From: a virus
Taxonomy: Duplodnaviria > Caudoviricetes
Length of the DNA stretch: 57,793 nt
Direction: 5' to 3' (one strand)
Virus record (IMG/VR): IMGVR_UViG_3300020043_007152
Location: 1-57,793 of that record
In this document: one piece after another, positions 20,379-39,413 of the stretch
How positions within the stretch are numbered: position 1 is the first letter of the stretch
Layout of the letters: each line of letters opens with the position of its first letter
Notes under the pieces: generated by a model
The model's input: only the letters and a program-made list of their open reading frames with translations
The model's database searches: none
Told to the model about the DNA's origin: nothing
Translations under genes and position numbers: made by a program

Positions 20379-20477
20379 TTTCATGGTCTAGTGTTGGTTT
20401 CGTTGGTTGGCTGGCGCTGTTGGCATTCTCTCGGATTGCGCGTGATGGTTAACATTTTTGTCGGTGAACGACTAGTT
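20379..20477 (+). repeat. attI-like site type A, copy 1
   Basis: GTGATGGTTAACATTTTTGTCGGTGAACGACTAG|TT; ~100-bp repeat shared with 21246-21348. Confidence 0.7.
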
Positions 20478-20723
20478 CGGGCTACAATAAAGGTCGATCA
20501 CTCCTTGAGCAGTGCCGTAGTAGCTGGGGTTAAAGTGGGCGTCGCATTGCCAGTTCTGAGGGCCGCAGGTTCCGTGGTCTCGCATGTTGCCCATATGTGG
20601 TCTCAGTCGCTTTCCGCACTTCGGGCATCGCGGCCAACCGTCTTTCTGGCATCGGAGCAAAGCCCGAACAAGACGGTGATCAGAACCGCCCGGAAGCGTC
20701 TGTTGTGGAGGGGTAGCGTTCAT
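20472..20723 (-). CDS. Cassette gene, Cys-rich protein
   Basis: Bounded by GTTCGGGCT/AGCCCGAAC; CPKC motif. Confidence 0.7.
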   Translation of the reverse strand: MNATPPQQTLPGGSDHRLVRALLRCQKDGWPRCPKCGKRLRPHMGNMRDHGTCGPQNWQCDAHFNPSYYGTAQGVIDLYCSPN

Positions 20724-20753
20724 GACGGGCGGTCTGATACCTCAGCGTTCGCG
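20663..20753 (+). repeat. attC-like site
   Basis: CCCGAAC..GGTGATCAGAACCGCCCG...CGGGCGGTCTGATACC..GTTCGCG, with extrahelical bases in the left arm. Confidence 0.8.
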
Positions 20754-20956
20754 TCATAGATTGCTTGCCACTCCTCCAAGGATTCCCAAGTCCCGCAGCC
20801 GTTGCCGCAGGTTCGCACCCCCTCGAAGTGTGGCCCGCCTCCTAGGTCGTGCGCGGTGGGCGGTTTCGCCCCGCATTTAGGGCAGTCCCACCACACGCGA
20901 ACAATCCGCGGCAGTGAACCGCCCGTTGGCGCTGGTGGCAGATCGGATGCTTTCAT
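20720..20956 (-). CDS. Cassette gene, Zn-ribbon protein
   Basis: Bounded by GTTCGCGT/ACGCGAAC; CPKC...CGNGC. Confidence 0.7.
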   Translation of the reverse strand: MKASDLPPAPTGGSLPRIVRVWWDCPKCGAKPPTAHDLGGGPHFEGVRTCGNGCGTWESLEEWQAIYDANAEVSDRPS

Positions 20957-20985
20957 AGGGCGGTCACTGCGCTTTGGCGTTCGGC
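20896..20985 (+). repeat. attC-like site
   Basis: CGCGAAC..GCGGCAGTGAACCGCCC...GGGCGGTCACTGCGC..GTTCGGC. Confidence 0.8.
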
Positions 20986-21251
20986 AGACCCATCAGCGAG
21001 CAGACCGCCGTGATTTGCTGCGTGATGTAGTCCTGCTTGGCTTGGGCCATCCGCCAGAAGTGCCACCGGATGCACGGGCGCTTGTTGCTGGGTTGTATGG
21101 AGCCGCGACTTGGCGGGCGGATGTGGTCGCCGCGCAGAGCATGGAGCCGCATTTTCACCCGTCGTTTTTGATCTCGGGCCTCGTCCTGCAACTGCCGAAC
21201 AAGCCTATAGAGAGGGACGCCGTGCGCGTCGCTGTTGTATCGCGTTTTCAT
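20964..21251 (-). CDS. Cassette gene, hypothetical
   Basis: Bounded by GTTCGGCAG/CTGCCGAAC. Confidence 0.65.
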   Translation of the reverse strand: MKTRYNSDAHGVPLYRLVRQLQDEARDQKRRVKMRLHALRGDHIRPPSRGSIQPSNKRPCIRWHFWRMAQAKQDYITQQITAVCSLMGLPNAKAQ

Positions 21252-21348
21252 GGTCTATCGTTGGCGGCGTTGGCTGGCTGGCTGGCGTTGTTGGAATTCT
21301 CACGGATTGCGCGTGATAGTTAACATTTTTGTCGGCGAACGACTAGTT
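21246..21348 (+). repeat. attI-like site type A, copy 2
   Basis: GTGATAGTTAACATTTTTGTCGGCGAACGACTAG|TT. Confidence 0.7.
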
Positions 21349-21594
21349 ATCCGAATTCTTTGCGGCGTAGCGGCCTGACTCCCGCTGCCAAAGCGCACGC
21401 TCCGTCAAGGCGAGCAATTCGTGGAGTTCAGTACTTCTGATTCGCCCGCGTTTATACGCGTAGTGGAAAATCCTGCCGATGAAGGCGTAGAGTGGTGCCG
21501 CAAAGATTCGGATAACAAGACGTTGTAGCCAACCGGCTTGCAGTATCTGATGATCTTTGGTTTGCAGTGCGTCAATGTAGTGTCGGTATTTCAT
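21343..21594 (-). CDS. Cassette gene, hypothetical
   Basis: Bounded by GTTATCCGAAT/ATTCGGATAAC; ATG 21594 lies in the attC loop. Confidence 0.65.
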   Translation of the reverse strand: MKYRHYIDALQTKDHQILQAGWLQRLVIRIFAAPLYAFIGRIFHYAYKRGRIRSTELHELLALTERALWQRESGRYAAKNSDN

Positions 21595-21636
21595 GGTAAT
21601 TCGTGGGTGCCGGTGGCTAAACTTTGGCCGTTCGGC
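21510..21636 (+). repeat. attC-like site
   Basis: GGATAAC..GTTGTAGCCAACCGGC...GCCGGTGGCTAAAC..GTTCGGC. Confidence 0.8.
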
Positions 21637-21845
21637 GACTTCGCCTTTTCGCGCCCGATGGCCGATGCTTTCAGCCACAAGCGGCGGAGTTCCAGGTCGG
21701 TTTCTTCTGCCGCCATGCGTTCGAGGTTCTGCGCGGCCCATAGGTAGTTCTTTGCCGTCGCCGAACCATCCACGGCAGCCAACCGCCGGGGCTGTTCGGC
21801 GGTCAATGGCTGTGGTGCCGCTTCTGGAGTGATAGGATTACTCAT
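21591..21845 (-). CDS. Cassette gene, hypothetical
   Basis: Bounded by GTTCGGCGAC/GTCGCCGAAC; ATG 21845 lies in the attC loop. Confidence 0.65.
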   Translation of the reverse strand: MSNPITPEAAPQPLTAEQPRRLAAVDGSATAKNYLWAAQNLERMAAEETDLELRRLWLKASAIGREKAKSPNGQSLATGTHELP

Positions 21846-21892
21846 GGTCTTGTGTGCCGGAGTCCGGCGGTTGCTGCGTTTGGCCGTTCGTG
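21760..21892 (+). repeat. attC-like site
   Basis: GCCGAAC..ACGGCAGCCAACCGCCGG...CCGGCGGTTGCTGCGT..GTTCGTG. Confidence 0.75.
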
Positions 21893-21903
21893 CAGGATGA
21901 TTT

Positions 21904-22440
21904 TCATGCGTCTGCCTCCTGCTGTGATAGACTCTGGCGGCGGTAAAACTCGGCAATCAGCGCCGCGTCCACCATTCCGCTGTGCGGGACTTTGCTCCGA
22001 TTCGATGCCAGGAATGTCTCTTCCGGCCAGAGACGTTTCGCCAACGCGGCAGCAGCCAGTTTGGTTTCGCCCTTAGCAACACGGCCAAGCATAGCGCGCT
22101 GCCATGAATCTTTCGGATTACCGGAACGCACGCGGATAATGCGACGCTGCCAGACAAGCCGGGACATTGCGGCAACGATCACGCCGTAGCTGAATGCCAT
22201 GCTGCGCATGATGGATGCGCGTTCGGAGTGAGCGGGGCATTCCTCCACCACAACAACCGTCTCGCCATCGCGGTGGTAAGGGCTGACTTGTGCATACAAC
22301 ATTCCGGCGGAAATCTCGCCGGTTACGCACAGCGGCATGGGGAATGCGTCCACCAGAAGCCCGGCGTTGGTCTTGCCGGTAGTGCCGGAGAGTATGGCGA
22401 CGCCGCCGGAGACGCCGTTATCAATTCCAATGACGATCAT
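21904..22440 (-). CDS. RuvC-like Holliday junction resolvase
   Basis: MIVIGIDNGVSGG, VVVEE, DAALIAEF. Confidence 0.85.
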   Translation of the reverse strand: MIVIGIDNGVSGGVAILSGTTGKTNAGLLVDAFPMPLCVTGEISAGMLYAQVSPYHRDGETVVVVEECPAHSERASIMRSMAFSYGVIVAAMSRLVWQRRIIRVRSGNPKDSWQRAMLGRVAKGETKLAAAALAKRLWPEETFLASNRSKVPHSGMVDAALIAEFYRRQSLSQQEADA

Positions 22441-22691
22441 GCTTTCTCCTTCCATTGTCCGCAGACGTTGAGGGCTTTCGTTTTGCCATGACCGTAGGCA
22501 GTCTTCCCTTTCGGTGCCATCAGGCAGCAGTAGGTGTATTTGTCGCTGTATTGGTGCCTGTAGAAGTGGGCGCATGTTGCGCAGCGTTTAGCGTCTGTGC
22601 GCTTGGCTTTGCCGGGCTGTGGACTTTTTGCGTAAGTTAGCTTTCGTTCCGAAAGCCACTTCTCCTGTTCGGGTGTGGGCGGGTGTTTCAT
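22437..22691 (-). CDS. Cys-rich hypothetical protein
   Basis: CATCAH...CC...CGQW; overlaps both neighbours. Confidence 0.65.
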   Translation of the reverse strand: MKHPPTPEQEKWLSERKLTYAKSPQPGKAKRTDAKRCATCAHFYRHQYSDKYTYCCLMAPKGKTAYGHGKTKALNVCGQWKEKA

Positions 22692-23803
22692 TTGGAAAGG
22701 GCGGTCAGAGCGGCCAGGGCGGTTTTTACGATCTTCCCAGCCTCCGCGGCTGTGCCGCGGTTGCCGAGTCGCGGGACCGGAACGGCGCGGATGCCTGCGA
22801 TGTAGTGGTCCAGCTTTTCGGCATCGCCTGCGGCTTCCAGCGCGGCAGCGGCGGCGCGTTCGCGTTCCTCCTGTTCACGCGCGGCGCGCTCGACTGCTTC
22901 ACGCGCCTTTCGTTCCTCGGTGGCGGCGCGTTCAGCGGCTTCCTTCTCAGCGCGCAATTTGGCTTCTGCTTCCTCGCGCTCTTTGCGGGCTGCCGCCTCT
23001 TTTGCCTCCTGTTCGGCGCGGGCCTTAGCCATTTCTGCCGCATGGCGTGCGCGCTCTGCTGCTGCCGCCGCTTCCTGTGCCTCACGTTCGGCGCGGGCTT
23101 TGGCCTCCAGTGCGGCTACTTCGGCGAGACGGGCCTTTTCTTTTTCCTCCGCCTCGGCGCGCAAACGCGCCGCTTCCTTCCGGGCTTCCTCTGCTTCGCG
23201 GGCAACGCGCTCGCGCTCCAGTCGCTCTTCCTCGGCCTTCCGAGCGGCTTCTTCTGCCGCCTGCTTCTCGCGCTCAAGGCGCATGGCGTGCAGGTCTTTC
23301 GCGTCCGCAAGCTGGCGCTGATATTGATCTTCGGTGAGCTTGCCGAGATCAACGGCGAGGGGACCATTGAGGAATGGGGTAATTTCAGCAGTGCGGCGCT
23401 GGCGTGTCTCCTCTTCGAGGCGAAGGCGCTCGTTCTCCTCGAAATCCTCTATGGCCTTGAGGTGTGCCTCTGCGGCTTCGCAGCGCTGGCGAATGCCGCC
23501 GTTAGCTCCGTCAATGTGGCGTCCAATCTCCAGAATATCGGCCTTGAGGGCGGTTTTGGCCTTCTCTGCCTCACGGCGGGCGACAGCGAAACAGTCAAGT
23601 CTCAGGCGGCGCGCCTCTTTAGCCAACTTACGGCGCTCGTCCGCTGGCATTTCGGCGCTGATCGTCATCGCGAGCGCGCGGGCTTCGTTTTCGTCCAGGA
23701 CTTGGCAGAACGGCTTGAATGCGTCTAGCGCATTGGCGCTGGCTGCTGGAATGGGCAGAAGCTCTGCCTCAACGGGTATTGTAATAGGTAGTTTGGCGCT
23801 CAT
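22688..23803 (-). CDS. Coiled-coil phage protein
   Basis: 371 aa with a long A/E/R-rich helix. Confidence 0.8.
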   Translation of the reverse strand: MSAKLPITIPVEAELLPIPAASANALDAFKPFCQVLDENEARALAMTISAEMPADERRKLAKEARRLRLDCFAVARREAEKAKTALKADILEIGRHIDGANGGIRQRCEAAEAHLKAIEDFEENERLRLEEETRQRRTAEITPFLNGPLAVDLGKLTEDQYQRQLADAKDLHAMRLEREKQAAEEAARKAEEERLERERVAREAEEARKEAARLRAEAEEKEKARLAEVAALEAKARAEREAQEAAAAAERARHAAEMAKARAEQEAKEAAARKEREEAEAKLRAEKEAAERAATEERKAREAVERAAREQEERERAAAAALEAAGDAEKLDHYIAGIRAVPVPRLGNRGTAAEAGKIVKTALAALTALSK

Positions 23804-23861
23804 GGCGCGGCACTTCTACAGCCGGAATCCGGGAGCGCAAGAAAAAACTCGCCAGCAAAGA

Positions 23862-23898
23862 AAATAATGCTTGCAATGCAAAAAGACAGCGCCAGAAT
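23862..23898 (+). promoter_or_regulatory. Putative promoter, copy 2 of AATAATGCTTGCAATGCAAAAA
   Basis: TTGCAA-N16-CAGAAT at the divergence point of two operons. Confidence 0.55.
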
Positions 23899-23903
23899 CC
23901 CGC

Positions 23904-25005: not shown

Positions 25006-25370
25006 TACTGCCAGCATCTACAGCCAACGACACGCCTGCTATGACGCGCGAAAGAACCCGCCAGCGCAGCATTGAAGCGCACTACCTCGCACAATGCGTG
25101 GAGTGCCCTATGTGCGGTGCCAATAGTAATGGCCTGGAACTCCGCGAGGTTCCGCCGTGGCTCCACGGCCACGACCCGCAGAGCCGCATCGTGTGCGACT
25201 GCGGAGTGTGCGGACCTACCGAGTCCTCGATAGACGAAGCGGTGGATTCCTGGAACACCCGGACCAGCACCATCGCGCCGACGTGGCCGCGGCCTTTCGC
25301 GCTCGGATTTGTCATCGGCTGCCTGTCCAGCATCGCTGCCGCCATCCTATTCATTCTTTTCGGACTATGA
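25002..25370 (+). CDS. Lar-like (restriction alleviation) Zn-finger protein with C-terminal hydrophobic helix
   Basis: CPMCG...VCDCGVCGP...EAVDSWNTR. Confidence 0.65.
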   Translation: MILPASTANDTPAMTRERTRQRSIEAHYLAQCVECPMCGANSNGLELREVPPWLHGHDPQSRIVCDCGVCGPTESSIDEAVDSWNTRTSTIAPTWPRPFALGFVIGCLSSIAAAILFILFGL

Positions 25371-26398
25371 GCACAACAGCACTGACACACATGCCACAAC
25401 ACGGCGATCAACTTGCCATCACTGAGCCGCAACTGATCGAGGTTCTCCGCGCCAGCCTTTACCCGGACGCCGCGCCAGAAAGCGTCGCACTTGTGCTTGG
25501 CTACTGCCGGGCGGCAAATCTCGACCCCATGCAAAAGCCTGTCCACATCGTGCCTATGTGGAGCAAGGCTGCGGGAAGCATGAGGGATGTCATCATGCCG
25601 GGTATTGCGCTCTACCGAATCCAGGCGTCCCGCAGCGGGCAACTCGCCGGTATCGGGCAACCGGAATTCGGTCCAGACAAGACCGAGAACATAGGCGGGA
25701 TCACGGTCACTTACCCGGAATGGTGCCGGGTTGTCGTGCGCCGCCGTATGCCGACTGGAGAAATCGCCGAGTTCATTGGCCTGGAGCGGTGGAGAGAGAA
25801 CTACGCGCAGAAGGGAGGCAAGGAAAGGTCCATTGCTCCTAATTCAATGTGGGAGCGGCGTCCCAGCGCGCAGCTTGCCAAGTGCGCAGAATCGCAGGCA
25901 TTGCGCCGGGCATTCCCCGAAATGTGCAGCGCCCCGACTGCCGAGGAAATGGAGGGCAGGCAATACCAAGAGCGCGACGCGACTCCAACAAAGCGCCAGC
26001 CTGTGCCGGACCCTTTCCAAGCTGCGGCGCTTCCGGCGCTGCCCGCTCCAACGTGGCAGTCTCTCTATCCCCACGCATGGGGAGACGAGCCGGTGCCGGG
26101 GCGCGACGGCAAGACCTACGGGGAGATCGCGGACGCTGACGACGGGGAAACCGCGATGCGCGACTTGTGGCGCAACGACCCATCGAATCCTTGGCTGTGC
26201 GCATGGAGCGCGCAGTGGATAGAGAAAGCAGCAGCGCAGGTCCGCGATTTCGACTTGGCCAGCTTCAAGGCTCAGTTGGGAGTGCCGGATATTTTCGACT
26301 GCACACCGAAGCAACTTCGCACAATGGCTGGCACGCTGCTTAAGTGGCTAGCCCAACAGGCCGACAACGACGCGAAGGAGGCGCAGGAAGCGCAATGA
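25367..26398 (+). CDS. bet: Bet-family single-strand annealing protein
   Basis: YCRAANLDPMQKPVHIVPM...QLAKCAESQALRRAFP. Confidence 0.92.
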   Translation: MSTTALTHMPQHGDQLAITEPQLIEVLRASLYPDAAPESVALVLGYCRAANLDPMQKPVHIVPMWSKAAGSMRDVIMPGIALYRIQASRSGQLAGIGQPEFGPDKTENIGGITVTYPEWCRVVVRRRMPTGEIAEFIGLERWRENYAQKGGKERSIAPNSMWERRPSAQLAKCAESQALRRAFPEMCSAPTAEEMEGRQYQERDATPTKRQPVPDPFQAAALPALPAPTWQSLYPHAWGDEPVPGRDGKTYGEIADADDGETAMRDLWRNDPSNPWLCAWSAQWIEKAAAQVRDFDLASFKAQLGVPDIFDCTPKQLRTMAGTLLKWLAQQADNDAKEAQEAQ

Positions 26399-26835
26399 AC
26401 ATCCGCAAACTTACCATAAAGGAGCGCGTGCAAGCCCGCAAGATTCTAAGGGCGCAAATCGCGGGGGCGAAGACAGTCCTTACTGAAATACCACGCGACC
26501 AATGGCCCTCCCCTGATTCGTCACATCCAAAGCGCCCGGCAAAAGTGTGGCTATCGAAGACGTTTCTCGTTCAAGCGTCCGTAGAGGAGCACGACATTGT
26601 TCGGCTATCCGTGAACCGAACTGAGCTTGTAATTGAGACAGGCCACTGGCAAGACGGCATCACTTGGGACGAACTCATGCGCGTGAAGAAGGAATGCGGG
26701 TACGGCGACCGTTGGGCAGTAGAAGTGTTCCCTCCCGACGACGAAGTCGTCAATGTCGCCAACATACGACACCTGTGGTTATTGCCGAATGCCCCCACCT
26801 TCGCCTGGAATAGCGCCAACCCTCCACAACAATGA
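26395..26835 (+). CDS. Conserved phage hypothetical protein
   Basis: ITWDELMRVK...AVEVFP...VNVANIRHLW. Confidence 0.8.
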   Translation: MNIRKLTIKERVQARKILRAQIAGAKTVLTEIPRDQWPSPDSSHPKRPAKVWLSKTFLVQASVEEHDIVRLSVNRTELVIETGHWQDGITWDELMRVKKECGYGDRWAVEVFPPDDEVVNVANIRHLWLLPNAPTFAWNSANPPQQ

Positions 26836-27515
26836 ACCCGCTCGCCAAAATACACACCGACCTGATTCAAGGCTCCGACGAATGGTTCCGCGCACGGTTG
26901 GGACGCGCGACCGCCAGCCAGGCCAAGCGCATTATCACGGCAGCGAAGGGAGACTATTCCAAGCAGGCACCCGATTACGCTGCCGAACTTATTGCGGAAT
27001 GCCTCGCTCCGAATGAGCCGCCCTCATTTGCCGGGAATTGGGCCACTGACCGAGGGAATGAAATGGAGCCTCACGCTATCGCTGCGTTCGAGGCGCAAAC
27101 CGGCCTGAAAGTCCAGAAGGTCGGCTTCATATCCGTTCGCCTCCGCGAGGACAGCCCGGTGGACATCGTAGGCCTTTCGCCTGACGGACTGGTGCTGGAC
27201 TCGGACGGCTTCGACTACTGTGCCGGCCTCGAAGTGAAATGCCCGCTGCGCACACAGCACGTTCAGAATGCGCTCACCGGAGAGCTTCCCGACGACTACA
27301 AGCAGCAGGTCCACTGGAGCCTTGCGCTGACAAAGCTGCCCGAATGGCATTTCTGGTCGTGGCATCCAGACATACAGCCGGTTCACTACGTTGTCCGACC
27401 AGACGCATACACGGAGAAAGTTTCCGCAGCTATTGAGCAGTTTGTCTGCGAATACGTGGCCATGCGCACGCGACTTGTGCCCAAGCTGCAACTTCCGCCG
27501 GGCCTGAGCGAATAA
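26832..27515 (+). CDS. YqaJ/lambda-exonuclease family protein
   Basis: QGSDEWFRARLGRATAS, SPDGL, EVKCP, QVHW. Confidence 0.92.
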   Translation: MNPLAKIHTDLIQGSDEWFRARLGRATASQAKRIITAAKGDYSKQAPDYAAELIAECLAPNEPPSFAGNWATDRGNEMEPHAIAAFEAQTGLKVQKVGFISVRLREDSPVDIVGLSPDGLVLDSDGFDYCAGLEVKCPLRTQHVQNALTGELPDDYKQQVHWSLALTKLPEWHFWSWHPDIQPVHYVVRPDAYTEKVSAAIEQFVCEYVAMRTRLVPKLQLPPGLSE

Positions 27516-27545
27516 TTCACCAACCCAAAACACGCCAAAACTACC

Positions 27546-28136: not shown

Positions 28137-28137
28137 T

Positions 28138-28605: not shown

Positions 28606-29108
28606 GCTTTTTCCAGTTCTCGCCAATCGCCAAGACGCGCAATGAACACCGCTGCGCATGGTGCAACGAGAAGATCGAGAAGGGAGCCGCCGCGGTGCGC
28701 GGCTCAGGGTTTGGAGACGACGGTTTCTGGAGCGCCATTGAGCACCCGGAATGCTACCGCGCATGTCAATATGAGTGGTGGAATGAGTCGGACGAATATC
28801 CACTGGACTCCATGCGCCGCGGAACTTGCCTCGAAAGCGGAGATACAGGCGACTGCACGATATGGAGCAGCGAGCCTGTGACTGCGGAGGAACTTCGGAC
28901 AGTGGGGCGACACGCAAAGAACACTCGTCCATTCGCAAATTTCTGGCCGGTTTGGAAATGCGAGTGCGGACTCGAATTTGCCCTAGATTCATCGCCTATA
29001 GACGGAAGCCTTCGATGGAACGGTTACGCATGGGAGCACCACCACGGCGGACAGGCCGGGCATTTCCGTATGACGAAAACATTTCAGCCAAACAAGACAC
29101 TGCCATGA
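28602..29108 (+). CDS. Hypothetical protein
   Basis: HRCAWCNEKI...HPEC; ATGA overlaps. Confidence 0.7.
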   Translation: MSFFQFSPIAKTRNEHRCAWCNEKIEKGAAAVRGSGFGDDGFWSAIEHPECYRACQYEWWNESDEYPLDSMRRGTCLESGDTGDCTIWSSEPVTAEELRTVGRHAKNTRPFANFWPVWKCECGLEFALDSSPIDGSLRWNGYAWEHHHGGQAGHFRMTKTFQPNKTLP

Positions 29109-29311
29109 GCACACCAAATACAACCGCCCCTGCTGTTGTTCGGCCTCGCCGTCCACGTTGCAATCATCGATGCGTTGGATGGGACGAGGCCAATAAATGC
29201 GGGCATGTTCACGGGTGCTGGACATGCACCCTCAAGCGCGGGCACCGCGGACCACATATCGCGTGCGGGATCGGCAAAGGGCACAACTTCGCACATTGGC
29301 CGAACGCTTGA
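29105..29311 (+). CDS. Cassette gene, Cys/His-rich protein
   Basis: Bounded by GTTCGGCC (29138)/GGCCGAAC (29305). Confidence 0.65.
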   Translation: MSTPNTTAPAVVRPRRPRCNHRCVGWDEANKCGHVHGCWTCTLKRGHRGPHIACGIGKGHNFAHWPNA

Positions 29312-29358
29312 GATCAGCCACGAGCCTTAGCGAGTTGGGCTGCATCTCATGGTTAGCT
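29299..29358 (-). repeat. attC-like site (short, 60 bp)
   Basis: Minus strand AGCTAAC CAT GAGATGCAGCC...GGCTGATCTC AAGC GTTCGGC. Confidence 0.85.
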
Positions 29359-29487
29359 GGCTGGTCTGGACCTCTGAAAACGCGGCAGCGCAAGGACGAG
29401 AGGAATAAATTAAATCTCCTCTTTACAAACCAAAGCGGTTAGGTTACAGATACCGGGGTCAACGGAAAACCCAACTCACCCAAAAAA

Positions 29488-29763
29488 ATGAAAACTGAAA
29501 TCATCGAAGTTAAAATGACTCGTCAAGCTGGCAACGATTGGATCGTCCGACTCTCCGACCGCGAGGGCTGGTGGATGCTACCAACGCACATGGTCTCCGC
29601 TGAGATCAACATGCGCAACATCCGGCAGTTTAAGGGCAACCCTGCCGCACTCGAAGATGTGACGCCATCTGCTATCATGGGCATCGCAATGTGCGGATAT
29701 CCAGTGCAAACCGCATACTACGAGACCGCCAAAAAGGGCAACTCCAAGATGGCACGCCGGTAA
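29488..29763 (+). CDS. Cassette gene, hypothetical
   Basis: Inside cassette bounded by GTTAGCTGGCT/AGCCAGCTAAC. Confidence 0.7.
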   Translation: MKTEIIEVKMTRQAGNDWIVRLSDREGWWMLPTHMVSAEINMRNIRQFKGNPAALEDVTPSAIMGIAMCGYPVQTAYYETAKKGNSKMARR

Positions 29764-29793
29764 ATCATCCAATCATCCAATCATCAAAAAAGC

Positions 29794-30099
29794 ATGAAAA
29801 TCAAAACACTCAAAGCTGGCACTATCGTCCAAATGCACGGAATCCCCGTCGAGCTGCTCGGCGAGGTCAAAGCACAAAGCTCAAAGGGCAATTGGACAAT
29901 GATCGACAGCGGCATCAAAGAGCGGGCAAAGCAAATGGGACGCAAAGGAGGACTGCAAACGTCTGAAGCCAAAGCCGCCGCTGTCCGAGAAAATGGTAAG
30001 CTCGGCGGGCGGCCTCGGAAAACTCCGAAGGCTGAGCCGCCGTCTGAGCCAGCTAACGACGCCGGTCAGCGACATTCGCCGCGCCAAGAGACTTTATGA
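29794..30099 (+). CDS. Cassette gene, small basic putative DNA-binding protein
   Basis: GRKGG..TSEAKAAAVRENGKLGGRPRK motif. Confidence 0.75.
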   Translation: MKIKTLKAGTIVQMHGIPVELLGEVKAQSSKGNWTMIDSGIKERAKQMGRKGGLQTSEAKAAAVRENGKLGGRPRKTPKAEPPSEPANDAGQRHSPRQETL

Positions 30100-30150
30100 C
30101 CACGAAAACCGACAACGCGGCGAATGTTCGCTGCACTGGCATGGTTAGGG
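30051..30150 (-). repeat. attC-like site
   Basis: Minus strand CCCTAAC CAT GCCAGTGCAGCGAACATTCGCCGCG...CGCGGCGAATGTCGCTGACCGGC GTC GTTAGCT. Confidence 0.85.
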
Positions 30151-30368
30151 CGCACTTACCAGCGCGTCTCAGGAGTGCGCTGGAGGCGGTGGTGGCTGGC
30201 GAGGGCGACGACCTGTATTTCGTGCTCGGATACCTGTCAGCGTCCACGGCGAGAAGCTATATGTCGCAACTCAAAGCGCGCGGACTAGCCTACACGCACG
30301 TCAGCGGCGGGACGGTGGAGGTCTGGGCGCACGACAAGGGGAGGCGTCTAGTGCGCCCTAACGACTGA
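30096..30368 (+). CDS. Cassette gene, possible winged-helix protein
   Basis: Bounded by the perfect 12-bp pair GTTAGGGCGCAC/GTGCGCCCTAAC. Confidence 0.7.
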   Translation: MTTKTDNAANVRCTGMVRAHLPARLRSALEAVVAGEGDDLYFVLGYLSASTARSYMSQLKARGLAYTHVSGGTVEVWAHDKGRRLVRPND

Positions 30369-30397
30369 CTCGTCCGCAAAGTGCGGAATATCACACC
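30360..30397 (-). repeat. attI-like site type B, copy 1
   Basis: Plus strand AACGACTGACTCGTCCGCAAAGTGCGGAATATCACACC; repeated at 39405. Confidence 0.65.
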
Positions 30398-30699: not shown

Positions 30700-31028
30700 A
30701 CCCAATCACCCCGCCGCAGACCTATCAGGCGCGGACAGCAACAGGCACGGTGCCCAAAAGACAACAAATCTTAGGGAAGGGTAAAATATCACCGGCGCTA
30801 GGTGCTGATGCTGCGGATTCGGGCTCGTTGTCCGACTCTGCGGCGGGGCTATTTTTTCCTTGCCATTAGCCGTGACTCCGGCACACTCCGGCAAAGCGAC
30901 TTGATCTTCGCTCCCCGAAATTCAATGAACCTCACTACCTCCAACATTTTTCCCGCCCCCAATCCGCGTTGCCGTTTGTTCATTGACGGAGATCAGAGCG
31001 CGGCTGGGAGGCGGGATTTTGTTTGGCC

Positions 31029-31925
31029 GTGAACTATTACCCTCACCATTTAGGCGACTACGCAAAGGACACTGGCCATTTGAGCCTTCTGGAGCATGGT
31101 GCATACCGCCTGCTTCTGGACCATTACTATTCCACCGAGAAGCCGCTCCCTAATTCTCCCGATGCACTGCATCGCATCTGCCGCGCCACCACAAAGCAGG
31201 AAAAGGAGGCCGTAGCATCAATAGCCAAGCAGTTCTTCCGGGAGGAAGATGGAGCGCTCGCGCATGGCCGTGTAGAGCGGGAGATTGAGGAATTCAGACG
31301 CAAATCTGAGAAAGCCGGACTGGCAGGCAAGGCTAGTGGGGAAGCGAGAAGATTAAAGGCTTCTAAAGAAAACGAACGGACGTTCAACGGACGTTCAACG
31401 GACGTTCAACGGACGTTCAACGAATGTTCGTCTGGAGTTCAACCAGCCAATAACCAAGAGCCAATAACCAGTGTTCTTTTAGGAAAAGAACCAAAACCGC
31501 GCGGGCGCGGGAGGGATGATGATGATGCAGACTTTGCAGCGGCATCAGCACACCAACTCGACCTGACGGCCTCCCCGAAGCTCAAGGCCGCTTGGCAGGA
31601 ATGGCAGGCTTACCGCCAGCGCAGGCACCGCGCCAAAGGCCAAAAACATCTGGACTGGACGCTCCAATCCGCTCGCCTTTCGGCGGCTGGCATCATGGCA
31701 GCTTCAGAGCAGCACGGCGACCAGATTGTTTCAGACCGCATCGCCGCCGCAATTACCGGCGACTGGCAAGGACTCAACTTCGACACCATCAAACACCCAC
31801 AAACCAATGGCTATTCAACACATCCAGGACATCGCCCTGCGCCGCGCTTCGCCACCGACACCAGAACCGGACCCGGCACCATTGCGGGGGGCGGCCAAAG
31901 CGAAGCTCATAAGCACCGTCTCTGA
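31029..31925 (+). CDS. DUF1376/YdaU-family replication initiator
   Basis: NYYPHHLGDYAKDTGHLSLLEHGAYRLLLDHYYSTEKPLP; internal iterons. Confidence 0.88.
   Translation: MNYYPHHLGDYAKDTGHLSLLEHGAYRLLLDHYYSTEKPLPNSPDALHRICRATTKQEKEAVASIAKQFFREEDGALAHGRVEREIEEFRRKSEKAGLAGKASGEARRLKASKENERTFNGRSTDVQRTFNECSSGVQPANNQEPITSVLLGKEPKPRGRGRDDDDADFAAASAHQLDLTASPKLKAAWQEWQAYRQRRHRAKGQKHLDWTLQSARLSAAGIMAASEQHGDQIVSDRIAAAITGDWQGLNFDTIKHPQTNGYSTHPGHRPAPRFATDTRTGPGTIAGGGQSEAHKHRL
31375..31429 (+). repeat. Iteron array, probable replication origin
   Basis: AACGGACGTTC x4 plus AACGAATGTTC inside the initiator gene. Confidence 0.85.
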
Positions 31926-32511: not shown

Positions 32512-32717
32512 AACGCCGCCACAGCCAACCCAAACGGAAGCAAAAACGCGCCCAATGCTCCGAAGCCGCCCGCGCCGAATACCTCGCCCGTAATGGCTTT
32601 CCGTGCCAACGCTGCGGCCAATTCTTCAACACCCCCCTCGAAATCGAAGCACACCGCCGGTTCTGCGAGCCGGACAACTCTCCACCCACACCCACACCCA
32701 CACCGCCATGCCCGTAG
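32508..32717 (+). CDS. Small Zn-finger protein
   Basis: CQRC...H...C. Confidence 0.45.
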   Translation: MKRRHSQPKRKQKRAQCSEAARAEYLARNGFPCQRCGQFFNTPLEIEAHRRFCEPDNSPPTPTPTPPCP

Positions 32718-33238
32718 AACTCCAATTCGCCAGCCGCCCCGCAAATCCATACCGGCCACCCCCGCAGCCGCCTTCCGCGTCCCTCCTCACGCCCCGCTGG
32801 AACGAAAGGGACTCTGTTGACCACATCGCCGGCATCCTCCGGCGTGTAGGACTCATCAACCCTCTCGCCCTCGCGCCAGATACGAGAACCGCCCTCTCAC
32901 GCACGTCCAGCGCCTCCGACTGGCTCGCATGGCTCGCCGCCGCCGGATACCCCCGAGACGCAGCGCAGCGCCTATCCGTCGCGATTTGCGCCCTCGCCGC
33001 CCCTTTAGGCTCAGAGCCGGAACGCGAAGCCTCAGAAATTCAGGCGGCCATACGCTCCTGCGGCTTCACCCAGGCCGAAATCGCCTCCGCCAGCGGCATC
33101 ACCACCAGCGAGATCAGCAACTTTGCCACCGGGAAGCGCCCTCCTACCCCTCAGAAGCAGGAACGCATCTACACAGCTATCGCCACCCTCCGCGAGCGCC
33201 GAATGGACGCCCTCGCTTCTCGTAAGGGCGACACTTAA
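32708..33238 (+). CDS. XRE-type HTH protein
   Basis: GFTQAEIASASGITTSEISNFATGKRPP. Confidence 0.8.
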   Translation: MPVELQFASRPANPYRPPPQPPSASLLTPRWNERDSVDHIAGILRRVGLINPLALAPDTRTALSRTSSASDWLAWLAAAGYPRDAAQRLSVAICALAAPLGSEPEREASEIQAAIRSCGFTQAEIASASGITTSEISNFATGKRPPTPQKQERIYTAIATLRERRMDALASRKGDT

Positions 33239-33507: not shown

Positions 33508-33897
33508 TTATGCGCAAAATACCCGCTCACCAGAGCCGTATCGGCTGGATATGTCGTCGGGGCTAAGTCCGGCCAAGCCTAACCGCAAGGCGCTGGCCCC
33601 TAAATTACCCCATTGGGGCCAAAACGGCGGGTGGTTGTCGTAGCTGGATAGATACACCTCAGCCAATACCCTGCGCTGCGCATCCGTGACATGCTCTGGC
33701 ATGGGGCATCCATCGGCGACATGCAGATATACACTGCCAACCTGGTTGCGTATCCCGCCGCGTGTTCGCGTGTCAGTATAGGACACTGAGCCGCCGGGAG
33801 TTATGGTTACAATGACACCTCCGCGCTGTGGTTGAAACTGCGGATCGTAATGGTAGATAACGCATCCCTCAAGGATTATGTCGTGCGGTTCGCTCAC
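33508..33897 (-). CDS. Hypothetical protein
   Basis: GTG start overlapping stop of the upstream minus gene. Confidence 0.5.
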   Translation of the reverse strand: MSEPHDIILEGCVIYHYDPQFQPQRGGVIVTITPGGSVSYTDTRTRGGIRNQVGSVYLHVADGCPMPEHVTDAQRRVLAEVYLSSYDNHPPFWPQWGNLGASALRLGLAGLSPDDISSRYGSGERVFCA

Positions 33898-34199
33898 GGC
33901 TGGCCTCCTTCCGCTTTGGCGATGGCGGCATCCATCGCTTCCTGAATTTCCGGCCAGCCGTCTTGCTCTTCCATGTAGCGCGTATGGTCGGCTATTGCTT
34001 TGAGGACGGCCAGCAACTCCGGCGCGGCGGCGATTAGGCGGGCGTCGGCAAGGAGGGTGTCCGCGCGGCGACTGGATTCGACAACACAGATGGACGCGCC
34101 TCCAAGCTCGGATGAACGGCTGACGCATATCTCCTGCTCGCCATTAGCGGCTAGGTTTGAGAGATGCCACGGCCCGGGTGTGTGTTTCGGTTCGTTCAT
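33894..34199 (-). CDS. Conserved phage hypothetical protein
   Basis: KHTPGPW...ADARLIAAAPELL...AAIAKAEG. Confidence 0.85.
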   Translation of the reverse strand: MNEPKHTPGPWHLSNLAANGEQEICVSRSSELGGASICVVESSRRADTLLADARLIAAAPELLAVLKAIADHTRYMEEQDGWPEIQEAMDAAIAKAEGGQP

Positions 34200-34343
34200 G
34201 GTGGTAGTTTGTTTGTAGTTTGGCCGCCGGTAGTTCATGGCGACGAGCCACTAAAGCACAGCCACAACAAAAGCGCAACGGTTTTCTGCAAGAATTATTT
34301 CCCCCTTTGACTTTCCCCTTTCAATCCGCCATCTTTCGCAACT

Positions 34344-34886: not shown

Positions 34887-34972
34887 TACAAATCCGGCGC
34901 GAAAATGAGGTTTGCCCACGGGGCCGACATCGCGCTTAGTATCGGAACGCCTGAAAAAGCGTGGGAAATGTC

Positions 34973-35012
34973 GGAAAAAGCGATGTGGGAATCCCCCATA
35001 GCGCGCCAGGCC
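34973..35012 (+). repeat. ~38-bp direct repeat, copy 1 (copy 2 at 37913-37950)
   Basis: GGAAAA(A)GCGATGTGGGAATCCCC(C)ATAGCGCGCC(A/C)GGCC. Confidence 0.85.
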
Positions 35013-35074
35013 GGGAGTGCCGCGGGGGAGATGTCCCCCGCGGATCGGCAGCCCCGCGCCCCCTCGCTTCGCAT

Positions 35075-35149
35075 AACTAGTTGTTCAGCGACAAAACTGT
35101 TCAGTATTACGCGGATTCCGAGGCAAAACAGACACACAGGCACCCCATG
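35075..35149 (-). repeat. attI-like site type A, copy 3
   Basis: Plus strand AACTAGTTGTTCAGCGACAAAACTGTTCAGTATTACGCGGATTCCGAGGCAAAACAGAC. Confidence 0.65.
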
Positions 35150-35997: not shown

Positions 35998-36450
35998 ATG
36001 GACGCAAAAACCGCACTACTCGCCGAGCGCCAGCGCATCATCAAGGAACTCGCAGACCTTGATAGCGTGCTCGCATCGCGCTTTGGATGGACTGCCGACA
36101 AAAAGGCGGAACCACTAAGCGCCCCGCCCGCCGCTCCTGAGCGCGAGGAGGCAAAGCCTTTTGCTCTCGATTCAGTAAAAACGCCTGCAAGGAGGCGGAC
36201 GCCGCCGACTGACGCGGGGCGGGCCGAATCTATCGCCTATGCACGCGAGGCGGACGAATGGCTGGAAACGGTCAGCGGCCAGTTCAGCGTTGTACAGTTC
36301 CGCGAATGGCTGCGCGCCAAATACGGGGATGCTTTGAATGATGCTTCTATCAAAGGCCCGTTTCGCGCTCTCGAACGATCCGGCAAATTGAAGATTGTCA
36401 CGCCGGGGGCTGGTCGCCGCCCCACGGTCTATACCAAGCCAAATCAGTAA
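35998..36450 (+). CDS. Hypothetical protein, possible C-terminal winged helix
   Basis: 150-aa ORF ending LERSGKLKIV..GAGRRPTVY. Confidence 0.7.
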   Translation: MDAKTALLAERQRIIKELADLDSVLASRFGWTADKKAEPLSAPPAAPEREEAKPFALDSVKTPARRRTPPTDAGRAESIAYAREADEWLETVSGQFSVVQFREWLRAKYGDALNDASIKGPFRALERSGKLKIVTPGAGRRPTVYTKPNQ

Positions 36451-36602
36451 TTTCTTCCAACCTCACCCAACATGACCGCATTATTAGTCCACGGGGGCCG
36501 GTTCAGCCGATGCCTGTCGCCGTAAAAAGAAAACCCGGCGCTGACTTCCGAACTTTAGCGAGGAAGGAGTCAGCGCCGGGCAAGGCAGTTCAAGAACAAC
36601 AT

Positions 36603-36674
36603 GCGCTCGTAGTGTAACGGAAAACATCCGACCGTCGTAAGTCCGGGATGCGGGTTCGATTCCTGCCGGGCGCG
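36603..36674 (+). tRNA. tRNA-like gene, possibly Thr(CGT), with defective anticodon stem (pseudo-tRNA)
   Basis: Acceptor GCGCTCG/CGGGCGC; D stem GTGT/ACAT; T arm GCGGG-TTCGATT-CCTGC; loop TCGTAA. Confidence 0.55.
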
Positions 36675-36681
36675 CTTTTCT

Positions 36682-36909
36682 TCAAAGAACTCCAAGAGCT
36701 TTATCGGGTTCTCCGCTGTTTTCAAGTGGAATCCGACTGGCCCACTGCAACAATAGCGCATCCACGGTGCCGCTCAAGTTGCTGGTCCGTTTGCGGGCAA
36801 GCGTCACGGTAGTTGACGACAGCGTAAGCGTGACGCGCTCTTTCCCCTGAGGCTTTCGCCCCGCTCCTTCGCGACGACCGCCGCGCGCAGGTTTGGTAAG
36901 TGGGTTCAT
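36682..36909 (-). CDS. Small putative RHH/antitoxin-like DNA-binding protein
   Basis: RGGRREGAGRK...VTLTL...NLSGTVDALL; divergent from the transposase. Confidence 0.6.
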   Translation of the reverse strand: MNPLTKPARGGRREGAGRKPQGKERVTLTLSSTTVTLARKRTSNLSGTVDALLLQWASRIPLENSGEPDKALGVL

Positions 36910-36988
36910 TTGAAAAGATATGCAGTAAATCAGTTGACTTTGCGGGTTGTTTGATACAGTATGCACTGAATCGAATCCGTCAACACAA

Positions 36989-37891
36989 ATGAGCGCACCA
37001 CTTTCCAAAGAGAAGAAGGCTTTAGTTCTTGCGATGCTGTCAGAAGGAACCGCTATCAACGCGGTTTGTCGCGTGCTGCATGTTGGCGTGGTGCAAGTGC
37101 TGCGGCTTATTCTGGACGCCGGGGCCGCGGCTCGCGAGTGGCACACTGAGCATGTCCGCAACCTGACGTGCGAATACATCGCGGCGGATGAGGTTTGGAG
37201 CTACATCGGCGAGCATGAAGCAAGGCTCCCAAAGGGCAACGTGAAGGACAAGGAGAACTGGCGCGGTGATTGCTGGCTACTTTCTTCCTCCTGCTCTGTG
37301 AGTAAGTTGGTGATCGCATGGCGTAGCGGTGAGCGCACGGAAGAAACCGTCTCGCATCTTTTCTCGGACGTTCTGGACTGTGTTCCGGGGCGCTTCCAGT
37401 TGACCACCGATTGCTTCGGAACCTTTATCAAGCTGATGCGAAAGCTGCCGGAACGCGTTTCCTGTGCGACTGAGCTAAAAGTCTTTGGCGGCGCGAGCGA
37501 CCCCGGCAGCTTCAAGAAAGTGAACCGTTTACTGGGATGCGAGCGCCGCCCAATCAAGGGAACGCCTGAGATGAGTAAGGCAACAACCGCGTTCCAAGAA
37601 CGTCTGCACCTGACCTTTCGGCAGCAGATGCGCCGGTTTGGACGCCGCACCATTGGTTACTCCAAGACATACGCGCACCATACCGCTGCAATTAGTCTGT
37701 TCATCTTCATCTACAATTGGTGCCGTCGCAGTGAGGCCAAAGCCCTGAACGGGCAAACTCCCGCAATGGCCGCTGGCTTGGCAGACAAGCCGTTTAGTTT
37801 AGAACGGCTGGTGGAGATCACAGAAGCCTACCTCAAGAAACAAGAGGCGGCTAAATGGGAAGCGGCTTTCGCTGAGAAGTATAACCACTAG
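36989..37891 (+). mobile_element. IS1-family-like DDE transposase (element ends not identified)
   Basis: N-terminal HTH; DEVWSYIG, LTTD, ERLHLTFRQQMRRFGRRTIGYSK, YNWCR, TPAMAAGL. Confidence 0.85.
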
Positions 37892-37910
37892 AATTCACCG
37901 AAAGTGACGC

Positions 37911-37992
37911 CGGGAAAAGCGATGTGGGAATCCCCATAGCGCGCCCGGCCTGGTCCATGAGGCCGTCAGTTCGAGTCTGGCCGTCCCGACCA
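37911..37992 (+). pseudogene. Degenerate tRNA (Pro-like) with intact 3' half
   Basis: T arm GTCAG-TTCGAGT-CTGGC followed by CGTCCCG-A-CCA; 5' CGGGA can pair with TCCCG. Confidence 0.5.
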
Positions 37993-38033
37993 ACATTATA
38001 CGCGAAGGCGTATTTGCGGGCGGGGAGTTCGCG

Positions 38034-38157
38034 GGGTAACGGCCAAAGCTGAGCCGCAGCGGCAATAAACATCAACGACGAACAAAACGATCCCATGAAC
38101 GAAGCACTCGAAATCCCCCAGCCGACCACGCTGTCGGCTCCAGCGCCGTTGTTATCT
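38034..38157 (-). repeat. attC-like site
   Basis: Plus strand GGGTAAC..GCTGAGCCGCAGCG...CGCTGTCGGCTCCAGC..GTTATCT. Confidence 0.8.
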
Positions 38158-38307
38158 GAAATCGCTGAAGCGGTCGGAGCCATCGCGGAACTTCAGGGAA
38201 GGGCCACAGGACAGGGGCAGCACGTTGTCGCGGCCAAGTTACAGTGTGCCCGCGATGAACTGCGGTCGGCAGTGGGGTCATGGAACCACGGCATTTCAGA
38301 TAACTAG
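38095..38307 (+). CDS. Cassette gene, hypothetical
   Basis: Bounded by the perfect 12-bp pair GTTATCTGAAAT/ATTTCAGATAAC. Confidence 0.7.
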   Translation: MNEALEIPQPTTLSAPAPLLSEIAEAVGAIAELQGRATGQGQHVVAAKLQCARDELRSAVGSWNHGISDN

Positions 38308-38373
38308 TCGTTCACCAACACAATTGTTCACTATCACACAGATTCCGATGCAAAACAGACGCACAACGCTATG
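38302..38373 (-). repeat. attI-like site type A, copy 4
   Basis: Plus strand AACTAGTCGTTCACCAACACAATTGTTCACTATCACACAGATTCCGATGCAAAACAGAC. Confidence 0.7.
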
Positions 38374-38634
38374 ACAGAAACACTACAGAGACAGACGGCG
38401 GGCGATTGCCTGACGCGGCTTGTTCGCGGATCACTACCGGTTTTAATCGAAGCTCTATACGCAGCCTCCCAATTTGAGGAATCTTACGCTGACGCCCATA
38501 CGCTTAAGCCGTGGGAAATGACTGACGAACTCAAAAAGACCGCAGAAAAGGCGCGGGCAAAAGCAGGAAAATACCTAAAACTCAGGAAAGAACTAATATC
38601 CGCGAACGATAAACAGAAACACATCCATGAGTGA
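38371..38634 (+). CDS. Cassette gene, hypothetical
   Basis: Bounded by GTTCGCGGAT/ATCCGCGAAC. Confidence 0.7.
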   Translation: MTETLQRQTAGDCLTRLVRGSLPVLIEALYAASQFEESYADAHTLKPWEMTDELKKTAEKARAKAGKYLKLRKELISANDKQKHIHE

Positions 38635-38693
38635 ACTACCGAAGAACCAAGACCTGCCCGAGGCTGTTGCTGCCTGCATCTGATTTGTTCAGC
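38601..38693 (-). repeat. Degenerate attC-like site
   Basis: Both R boxes and one good L arm (CCTGCATCTG); the other arm is eroded. Confidence 0.5.
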
Positions 38694-38716
38694 CGCGCCC
38701 CAATTTACCAAACATT

Positions 38717-38905
38717 ATGAAAGTGAAATTCTACGTGGATTCAGGAGCAAATATCCACTCAAAACGCTCCCAAATACTCGATACAGTGAAAGACCTCGGA
38801 ATGCAGGAGGGCGAATGGGAATCCATGCCAGAAGATCAACGCTACGAATACGTTGACTCATGGGTATCAGAGAAGATCGAACAAGGATACGAGGAAGTTA
38901 GCTAA
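38717..38905 (+). CDS. Cassette gene, small acidic protein
   Basis: 62-aa ORF between attC-like sites. Confidence 0.7.
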   Translation: MKVKFYVDSGANIHSKRSQILDTVKDLGMQEGEWESMPEDQRYEYVDSWVSEKIEQGYEEVS

Positions 38906-39017
38906 CGACCAAGCGCAGCCGGCCCCGGAACCAACCTCAACCCCGCAAGAAAATGAATGATCTACCTGTAACGAACATCCCGGACTTGAAGGTGTCGGCT
39001 GACGCGACTGGTTCGCC
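38900..39017 (-). repeat. attC-like site
   Basis: Plus strand AGCTAAC..GCGCAGCCGGC...GTCGGCTGACGC..GTTCGCC. Confidence 0.75.
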
Positions 39018-39192
39018 GAAGCATGTCCATAAGCCGTGCGAATGGAAAAATGGCTTCTTTGGCTGGACATGCACGCACTGCAAGATGCTCGCCGAGACCG
39101 AGGACGAAACCTATGAAATCGAGGCAGCCTGTGAGCGCGTCGCTGCGGAGAACGCTCCGGGTGAGCGACGCGGCGAATTACCAATGACATGA
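38953..39192 (+). CDS. Cassette gene, hypothetical
   Basis: Bounded by GTTCGCCG/CGGAGAAC (1 mismatch). Confidence 0.65.
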   Translation: MNDLPVTNIPDLKVSADATGSPKHVHKPCEWKNGFFGWTCTHCKMLAETEDETYEIEAACERVAAENAPGERRGELPMT

Positions 39193-39252
39193 CTATGCCG
39201 AAAACCAAACGAAAACCGATGGCCCGCGTTCGCTCCAGCCGGATTGTTGTCT
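39147..39252 (-). repeat. attC-like site
   Basis: Plus strand GGAGAAC..TCCGGGTGAGCGACGCGG...CCGCGTTCGCTCCAGCCGGA..GTTGTCT. Confidence 0.8.
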
Positions 39253-39413
39253 GCGTTCGTTCGCGTGACGGATGGTGTGCGCTGCGAGATCAGCGTAAAA
39301 CCGCCTACAGCGATCATGTGCAAACCAGATGTGGAATGGTCGTAACGCTCCCGTGGGGAATAGGGCGACGACAACCTGACTGCCCCGACTGCAAGAAAGC
39401 AGACAACTACTGA
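39189..39413 (+). CDS. Cassette gene, Cys-rich protein
   Basis: Bounded by GTTGTCTGC/GCAGACAAC. Confidence 0.7.
   Translation: MTMPKTKRKPMARVRSSRIVVCVRSRDGWCALRDQRKTAYSDHVQTRCGMVVTLPWGIGRRQPDCPDCKKADNY

Follow-up and report, generated by a model that had tools for sequence, protein, structure and literature searches.

Probable integron-type gene cassette arrays, with junction AAC codons in frame, in a phage genome lacking an integrase

Integrons are viewed as bacterial systems in which promoterless gene cassettes are read from one top-strand promoter and in which the attC sites are non-coding. According to the cited part of PMC5027507, the attC boxes read RYYYAAC and GTTRRRY, and the extrahelical bases sit on the arm opposite AAC, on the bottom strand. 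In phages, attC clusters and some integrons are already known, and the cited part of Qi et al. 2023 (PMC9892861) reports attC clusters without an integrase in phage genomes, with IntI1 recombining five of six tested phage sites. The cited part of Nivina et al. 2020 (PMC7439510) adds that one DNA stretch can encode a peptide and function as attC. Here, we analyzed the IMG/VR virus record IMGVR_UViG_3300020043_007152 (Duplodnaviria; Caudoviricetes), a linear entry of 57,793 bp with a CheckV completeness of 91%, which we refer to, at its full length, as the window. In the window, small early genes form three blocks that are probably integron-type gene cassette arrays in a phage that lacks an integrase of its own. 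As no integrase is present in the window, the arrays are CALIN-like, a class defined by at least two attC sites with no integrase nearby; we found seven to nine sites, in three blocks.

Genes that end at a junction AAC

An earlier note on this DNA had claimed that the genes of these arrays lack a stop codon of their own and run through a junction AAC that is read as an in-frame Asn. Upon re-deriving the frames from the sequence, we found the AAC in frame 0 in 12 of 12 listed genes, with 0-14 codons between the AAC and the stop. All twelve C-terminal tails given in the note were recovered (see the lines below), as was its sole exception, the gene at 38717..38905, which ends AGC-TAA-C inside a 10-bp palindromic box (38897-38906). 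Four of the 12 stops are ATGA overlaps with the following start. Under a random-frame null of 1/3 per junction, the probability is 1.7e-5 for at least 12 of 13 junctions in frame and 5.6e-6 for 11 of 11. The span originally given for the cassettes, 20472-39413, also takes in ~15 kb of ordinary core genes, and the cassettes themselves form three blocks, at 20385-21888, 29105-30397 and 38038-39442. Their features are as follows (aa, amino acids; tails are followed by "stop"; repeat coordinates refer to the inverted repeats discussed after the list).

21764..21888, minus strand: S0, attC-like hairpin opening block I (AAC 21888-21886, GTT 21766-21764; scan score 14), directly after the RuvC-like gene, its AAC intergenic
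21591..21845, minus strand: cassette gene 5, 84 aa, SPN-GQSLATGTHELP-stop (10-bp repeat 21766-21757 / 21639-21630)
21514..21632, minus strand: S3, attC-like single hairpin, ATG 21594 in the loop (score 14; z = +0.33)
21343..21594, minus strand: cassette gene 4, 83 aa, SDN-stop (11-bp repeat 21516-21506 / 21356-21346)
21252..21348, minus strand: repeat A copy 2, from the AAC to the next ATG, giving a TAG stop
20964..21251, minus strand: cassette gene 3, 95 aa, LPN-AKAQ-stop (9-bp repeat 21200-21192 / 20987-20979)
20900..20981, minus strand: S2, attC-like hairpin, ATG 20956 in the loop, two 1-nt bulges in the GTT arm (score 15; z = -1.52)
20720..20956, minus strand: cassette gene 2, 78 aa, DAN-AEVSDRPS-stop (8-bp repeat 20902-20895 / 20754-20747)
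20667..20749, minus strand: S1, attC-like hairpin, ATG 20723 in the loop (score 16; z = -2.70)
20472..20723, minus strand: cassette gene 1, 83 aa, SPN-stop (9-bp repeat 20669-20661 / 20483-20475)
20385..20477, minus strand: repeat A copy 1, beginning at the AAC and giving a TAG stop
29105..29311, plus strand: cassette gene 6, 68 aa, WPN-A-stop (8-bp repeat 29138-29145 / 29298-29305)
29303..29354, plus strand: S4, short attC-like hairpin (52 nt; a single bulge; start codon absent; z = -2.26; missed by the scan)
29352..30057, plus strand: two-gene cassette, with 29488..29763 and 29794..30099 (PAN-DAGQRHSPRQETL-stop; 11-bp repeat)
30055..30146, plus strand: S5, attC-like hairpin, stem of 23 pairs, ATG 30096 in the loop (score 22; z = -4.21; 0 of 200 shuffles as stable)
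30096..30368, plus strand: cassette gene 8, 90 aa, RPN-D-stop (13-bp repeat 30144-30156 / 30350-30362)
30360..30397, plus strand: repeat B copy 1, beginning at the AAC and giving TGA, with a 6-bp hairpin inside
35075..35147, plus strand: repeat A copy 3, an orphan, with no open reading frame (ORF) of at least 40 aa ending at its AAC-TAG
38038..38153, plus strand: S6, attC-like hairpin opening block III, ATG 38095 in the loop (score 14; z = -1.96)
38095..38307, plus strand: cassette gene 9, 70 aa, SDN-stop (12-bp repeat 38151-38162 / 38293-38304)
38302..38370, plus strand: repeat A copy 4, beginning at the AAC and giving TAG
38371..38634, plus strand: cassette gene 10, 87 aa, SAN-DKQKHIHE-stop (10-bp repeat 38422-38431 / 38598-38607)
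38717..38905, plus strand: gene 13, 62 aa, the exception, its TAA inside the palindromic box
38904..39013, plus strand: S13, hairpin from the gene-13 box to the next GTT, ATG 38953 in the loop (-13.5 kcal/mol; missed by the scan)
38953..39192, plus strand: cassette gene 11, 79 aa, AEN-APGERRGELPMT-stop (imperfect repeat, 10/12, GTT 39011 / AAC 39151)
39151..39248, plus strand: S7, attC-like hairpin, ATG 39189 in the loop (score 14; z = -2.76)
39189..39413, plus strand: cassette gene 12, 74 aa, ADN-Y-stop (9-bp repeat 39246-39254 / 39399-39407)
39405..39442, plus strand: repeat B copy 2, its likeness to copy 1 starting exactly at the AAC

A trivial explanation would be that the Asn codons had been hand-picked among many small genes: the earlier reader chose 13 of ~40, and ~30% of genes are expected to carry an AAC in their last 16 codons. 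An in-frame AAC lies within the last 16 codons in 20 of the 40 called genes of the region, versus 11.8 expected, and in 10 of 39 genes outside it, and the frames of AACG near early-gene ends are distributed 12:2:2 versus 34:31:16 in gene interiors (in-frame enriched; Fisher p = 0.015). Given the expectation of ~30%, we sought a definition of the junctions that is free of the reading frame. Calling the coding strand by its longest ORF was abandoned because it scored only 6/13 on the window's own junctions. A frame-free definition was provided by inverted repeats: 11 of the 12 AACs end the 3' arm of a perfectly matched inverted repeat (GTT-X...X'-AAC, 8-13 bp) with the gene body between its arms, and the twelfth repeat is imperfect (10/12 matched), so that the first box of each cassette is complementary to its own end box. 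These repeats span 137-222 nt, with one of 706 nt that encloses two genes, and their inner part differs for every cassette. Of exact inverted repeats that begin with GTT and are separated by 20-260 nt, the window holds 13, 8 and 5 at minimum lengths of 8, 9 and 10 bp, versus means of 3.1, 0.84 and 0.21 (maxima 8, 4 and 2) in 200 dinucleotide shuffles; in 1.12 Mb of other loci, GTT-led repeats showed no enrichment over other triplets. Frame-blind definitions thus yield the same junctions, with the probabilities given above, and these shuffles together with the geometry scan described in the next section refute the chance explanation, to which we assign next to no probability.

The GTT box, ~50 nt past the start codon, is read in frame as Val in 8 of 10 cases, and this accounts for the repeated occurrence of 'R[LI]VR' close to the N-termini; we accordingly rejected this motif as a protein feature, as it is the translated GTT box. 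At 38027-38040, another GTT box, with 8 nt identical to that of cassette 10, abuts the AAC box of S6 with no body in between, a bodiless pair that may be a trace of past rearrangement. Within the two-gene cassette, a 17-nt motif at 29428-29446 equals L016 5797-5815, two unrelated phages sharing it upstream of the gene that precedes a KGG/GGRPRK-motif gene; it may be a promoter carried within the cassette.

attI is a double-stranded site adjoining intI that captures cassettes. The strings AAC-TAG and AAC-NAC-TGA, which had been read as attI-like sites, are real and proved to be the 5' edges of two repeat families, A (four copies) and B (two copies), which begin at the AAC and supply the stop. 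The pattern of repeat A is AAC-N5-GTT, and that of both attI1, viewed on the bottom strand, and the site preceding the L016 integrase is AAC-N3-GTT; the label 'attI-like' was not supported for repeats A and B. Both may be promoters; a sigma-70-like promoter scan gave no match at either repeat.

Hairpins at the junctions

In all seven linkers tested, the 52-125 nt from an AAC to the following GTT fold into a single long, imperfect hairpin, with z values versus shuffles of -2.70, -1.52, +0.33, -2.26, -4.21, -1.96 and -2.76; for five of the seven, at most 7 of 200 shuffles were equally stable. A paired AAC/GTT at the base of an imperfect hairpin was found at nine sites (S0-S7 and S13), whose AAC-to-GTT lengths we judged to agree with the roughly 57-141 nt of attC sites. 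The next start codon falls in the hairpin loop in six of the seven linkers, S4 having none, and the GTT-side arm carries two 1-nt bulges whose distances are fixed, the one nearer the GTT being separated from it by 3 bp and 5 unpaired bases. The R-box flanks are mostly (C/G)CGAAC / GTTCG(G/C), with a minority of TAAC / GTTA, around invariant triplets.

Using a geometry scan that ignores genes and frames, we found seven sites in the window, every one on the gene strand, and all seven have a central spacer, an L box and extrahelical bases opposite the AAC. Among 30 shuffles, 29 gave no site and one gave a single site, while scans with ten other triplet pairs gave 0-1 sites each; with GAA/TTC, the scan returned four sites, which were the same ones shifted by one base. 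The scan recovered the canonical attC of aadA1 (plasmid R100) on its bottom strand with identical spacings, that is, a 5-nt spacer, 3 bp, a bulge, 5-6 bp and a bulge, and hence the phage sites have attC geometry. Across 80 class-1-type loci, 55 of 57 hits lay upstream of intI and were co-oriented with it. Other comparisons were less informative: a constrained folding-energy ranking of all 2358 AAC...GTT pairs was unspecific, with GC-rich coding DNA at the top and low positions for S3 and the A-type linkers, and MAFFT gave no structural alignment of the sites. Further along the window, a perfect 14-bp inverted repeat (39797-39810 / 39912-39925) spans the junction of 39487..39834 and 39831..40097, with a start codon in its loop and without AAC/GTT.

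Start codons in loops would also be expected if the hairpins and long repeats were messenger RNA structures for translational coupling, in which a ribosome ending the upstream gene melts the 5' arm and exposes the start codon in the loop; the mosaic breakpoints would then reflect ordinary phage recombination at gene borders, and no site-specific system would be at work. The ATGA overlaps at four of the 12 stops are in line with such coupling, as are the lack, by eye, of Shine-Dalgarno sequences upstream of the starts, the window being without an integrase, and the hairpin at 39797-39925 with its loop ATG yet no AAC/GTT. Coupling leaves unexplained, however, why AAC/GTT is invariant at the base of the stem, why perfect, cassette-specific repeats occur 137-706 nt apart, and why the bulges keep a fixed spacing that is common with canonical attC. 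We regard this alternative as very unlikely, and note that coupling and recombination roles could co-exist.

Cassette borders and related arrays in other phages

To see whether the AAC is a crossover point, we compared the window with eight sequencing runs, each with only 5-8% of the sampled words and with parts of the stretch uncovered; no RNA run was among those listed. Contigs of four other metagenome runs, from wastewater and aquatic samples, carry single cassettes at 95-99% identity. Four contigs from three runs end at 30059/30060 (AAC at 30055-57), two contigs from two runs stop on the C of an AAC (38304), and three contigs from three runs start at 38046, six bases past an AAC; past these breakpoints, the contigs, which are short assembly contigs with other ends (31647, 33423, 30709) that are less clear, continue unlike the window. 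Breakpoints of single-base precision are left unexplained by translational coupling.

The earlier note had also predicted that identity among homologues of a cassette protein is lost at the Asn, and this held in both families for which homologues were found, the tails differing in sequence and length. In the 29794..30099 family, PSEPAN/QPAN is kept in five of the six closest sequences (window protein counted), with SGSN in P0004, and all diverge past the Asn in both respects. In the 21591..21845 family, KSPN is kept in four of four and is followed by a single V, a single I, 12 residues or 21 residues; strong identity extends from the GTT box ('GS') to the Asn, whereas the N-terminal part is only loosely alike, as expected if the hairpin travels with the downstream body. 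Searches with the 38095..38307 and 38953..39192 proteins gave no homologue besides themselves.

Loci fetched with one cassette protein contained 34 distinct sites in 14 loci. Tabulating the AAC frame in homologous arrays, as the earlier note had proposed, supported its claim: at 22 of 26 evaluable sites, the AAC shares the frame of the longest ORF upstream, versus a null of 36% (all AAC triplets in these loci); 24 sites reach a stop within 25 codons, versus 19% of all AAC triplets there. Two records with such arrays, both of near-complete phages to which the window is unrelated, encode a single tyrosine recombinase each. It follows the array directly and on the same strand, its start lying 26-28 nt beyond the final AAC. 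For both recombinases, the best model was TIGR02249 (integron integrase), matched over its full length with 256 and 229 bits (cut-off 265), versus 95-114 bits for the XerC and XerD models; the G002 enzyme, the one of the two that was searched against the PDB, gave IntI4 as its best match (2a3v, 8e-44). A search with the L067 recombinase yielded relatives in 56 IMG/VR viral contigs at 35-100% identity, or at most 76% when L168, the query's own record, is set aside. The integrase-like genes referred to here are the following.

L167 (G002:C1:3183-4151), L166 (G003) and L168-L223: integron-integrase-like recombinases

Contigs with these integrase relatives carry up to nine attC-like sites in the 6 kb directly upstream of the integrase gene, on the same strand. 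Among the 50 contigs with a full-length match, 101 of 106 sites were upstream and co-oriented, with at least one site in 37 loci, a placement that translational coupling again does not explain. Upstream of these phage genes, 60 of 71 evaluable sites had the AAC in frame. In L067, Pfam domains were found in two of five ORFs on the site strand versus none of four on the opposite strand, the site-strand ORFs including a Dam methylase and a PAPS-reductase-domain protein.

The frame tallies require a caution, and with it we gather the points that weigh against an integron-type reading of the blocks. The frame statistic is only partly specific: among 38 canonical class-1 sites, 12 meet the strict criterion, and frame 0 was the longest at 14 of 20 evaluable canonical sites, in part because one frame is closed by the TAA of the box and because different loci repeat the same 3' context. 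As this control is not clean, the protein alignments and the Pfam-supported strand, rather than the ORF tallies, are the strongest evidence for the in-frame junction. The geometry scan was tuned on the window sites before its use elsewhere. S4 and S13 fail its two-bulge requirement, S3 is no more stable than its shuffles (z = +0.33), and the junction after gene 10 is unstructured, its linker forming no hairpin. When both strands were folded, neither the gene strand nor its complement consistently gave the more stable structure. Most R boxes read (C/G)CGAAC / GTTCG(G/C), not RYYYAAC / GTTRRRY, and, in contrast to classical cassettes, the phage genes occupy the recombinogenic bottom strand, with transcription running toward the integrase position. 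Homologues were obtained for only two cassette proteins, and no close relative at the DNA level was obtained, for the cassette proteins none being present among 161 fetched loci. Finally, six-frame searches of the 91%-complete record found no tyrosine recombinase, serine recombinase or Y1 transposase; for PF00589 in particular, all six frames of the window gave zero matches at E <= 1.

The missing recombinase leaves room for cassettes that are truly mobile but are moved by other means, such as the phage's own RecT, YqaJ exonuclease, SSB and RuvC-like resolvase, all of which the window encodes, with folded single strands as their substrate, or template switching where the hairpins begin and end. 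The linker sequences differ, however, and would therefore offer no homology for annealing-based exchange between junctions, and the attC geometry together with the integrase link in other phages favors IntI. We consider such a mover unlikely.

In the integron-type reading, which we prefer, the cassettes would be moved by an enzyme of the IntI type, supplied by the host or by a co-infecting phage. Read along the coding strand, a cassette consists of the C of AAC, a short unpaired spacer, the 5' hairpin arm, a loop with the start codon, the 3' arm with two bulged bases, a 5-nt spacer, GTT-X, the gene body and X'-AA, the AAC-GTT hairpin having the geometry of attC as viewed on the recombinogenic bottom strand. 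Because the genes lie on that strand, the ORF starts in the attC loop, reads through the GTT arm and the body, and arrives in frame at the half-site X'-AA. The neighboring cassette then completes the Asn codon with its C and adds 0-14 more codons and a stop, often the TGA of an ATGA overlap with its own start. A fixed frame would thereby let any neighbor terminate the upstream gene, and we infer that the frame rule may exist in order to guarantee termination. Going further, we lean slightly toward the view that the window is an integrase-less member of a widespread and undescribed class of phage integrons, with bottom-strand cassettes transcribed toward the integrase, the integrase last in the operon, starts in the loops and an in-frame AA/C crossover. 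Serving as a common interface, the fixed frame would then allow any cassette to stand beside any other, with the upstream gene terminated and coupled to the next start, so that unrelated phages could exchange early accessory genes.

Phage early genes appear here to carry such recombination sites within their coding sequence, on the strand opposite to that of classical cassettes and with the frame of the crossover fixed. If an integrase does act on them, phage accessory regions would gain site-specific shuffling beyond homologous and illegitimate recombination, and phage gene annotation would need adjusting, because the neighboring site would set C-terminal tails and N-terminal segments. The ~50 viral contigs with integron-integrase-like genes make the idea directly testable.

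Genome context and comparison with known systems

Outside the cassettes, the following genes were assigned.

60..12731: DarB-like giant protein, 4223 aa
16464..18308: large terminase
21904..22575, minus strand: RuvC-like resolvase
25367..26398: RecT
26832..27515: YqaJ exonuclease
31023..31925: DUF1376 protein
32708..33238: helix-turn-helix (HTH) protein
36989..37891: IS1-like DDE transposase, 62% identical to a copy in a Verrucomicrobiales genome
40979..41470: SSB
41775..44117, minus strand: SU10-type portal

The giant ORF combines a DarB-like antirestriction part (methyltransferase-helicase) with a lysozyme-like part; as it is DarB-like and not a virion RNA polymerase, we rejected N4-like hairpin promoters as a candidate. 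The likeness of the IS1-like transposase is the sole hint of a host, pointing weakly to Verrucomicrobiales, and no integron integrase above the cut-off was found in the one Verrucomicrobiales genome sharing it. A tRNA-Thr (CGT) gene at 36603-36675 adjoins the transposase gene. On its other side, 37958-37995 resembles a tRNA 3' half, with T arm, acceptor end and CCA, in the style of an attachment site, with no integrase present, and beside it lies a ~25-45-nt segment (37911-37935) with a copy 2.9 kb upstream at 34972-34996. Within the DUF1376 gene, an 11-nt unit is repeated ~5 times head to tail (31364-31440), which may be an iteron-like origin element, and 40 nt (34010-34049) of the gene at 33894..34238 (PHROG 1273, 'AAAPELL'-type motif) recur in many contigs of three runs with differing flanks. 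A megablast of the region versus 50,697 phage records gave zero matches, and repeats A and B, searched as exact patterns, matched no viral, genome or metagenome contig. With RecT as the query we found one relative, at 41%, and with the major head protein none.

T4-type promoter/stem-loop cassettes and Botstein-type linkers place small accessory phage genes beside repeated regulatory elements that are presumed to aid shuffling. There, exchange relies on homology between copies, whereas most junctions of the window have nothing in common but structure and the AAC/GTT triplets; a role like that of such shuffling elements may fall to repeats A and B.

Like classical integrons, with aadA1 of R100 as the reference, the phage sites have AAC/GTT at the base of an imperfect hairpin, an unpaired spacer and a variable loop, with bulges at the same spacing on the arm opposite AAC and with complementary first and last boxes. 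As in classical integrons, the crossover would fall at AA/C, and the sites of the related phage arrays point toward the integrase. Unlike in classical integrons, the phage ORFs start in an attC loop and finish in the next site, and the boxes are mostly CGAAC/GTTCG. A top-strand ORF followed by its own attC was not found in the phage, the aadA1 control showing the reverse arrangement. An adjoining IntI-like gene, absent from the window, was found in other phage records with the same type of site.

Our search of the literature, which covered papers without their supplementary files, found nothing on bottom-strand-coded cassettes, start codons in attC loops or in-frame crossovers. Like the phages of Qi et al. 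2023 (PMC9892861), the window has attC-like clusters without an integrase, while the cited part of that study describes canonical predicted attC sites in 21 sequenced phages and does not mention bottom-strand genes, an in-frame AAC or start codons within sites. The sites in the cited part of Nivina et al. 2020 (PMC7439510) were engineered, whereas the overlap of gene and site in the phage is natural, systematic and in a fixed frame; if an integrase acts on it, this would be natural DNA that is both protein-coding and a recombination site, a combination hitherto only engineered.

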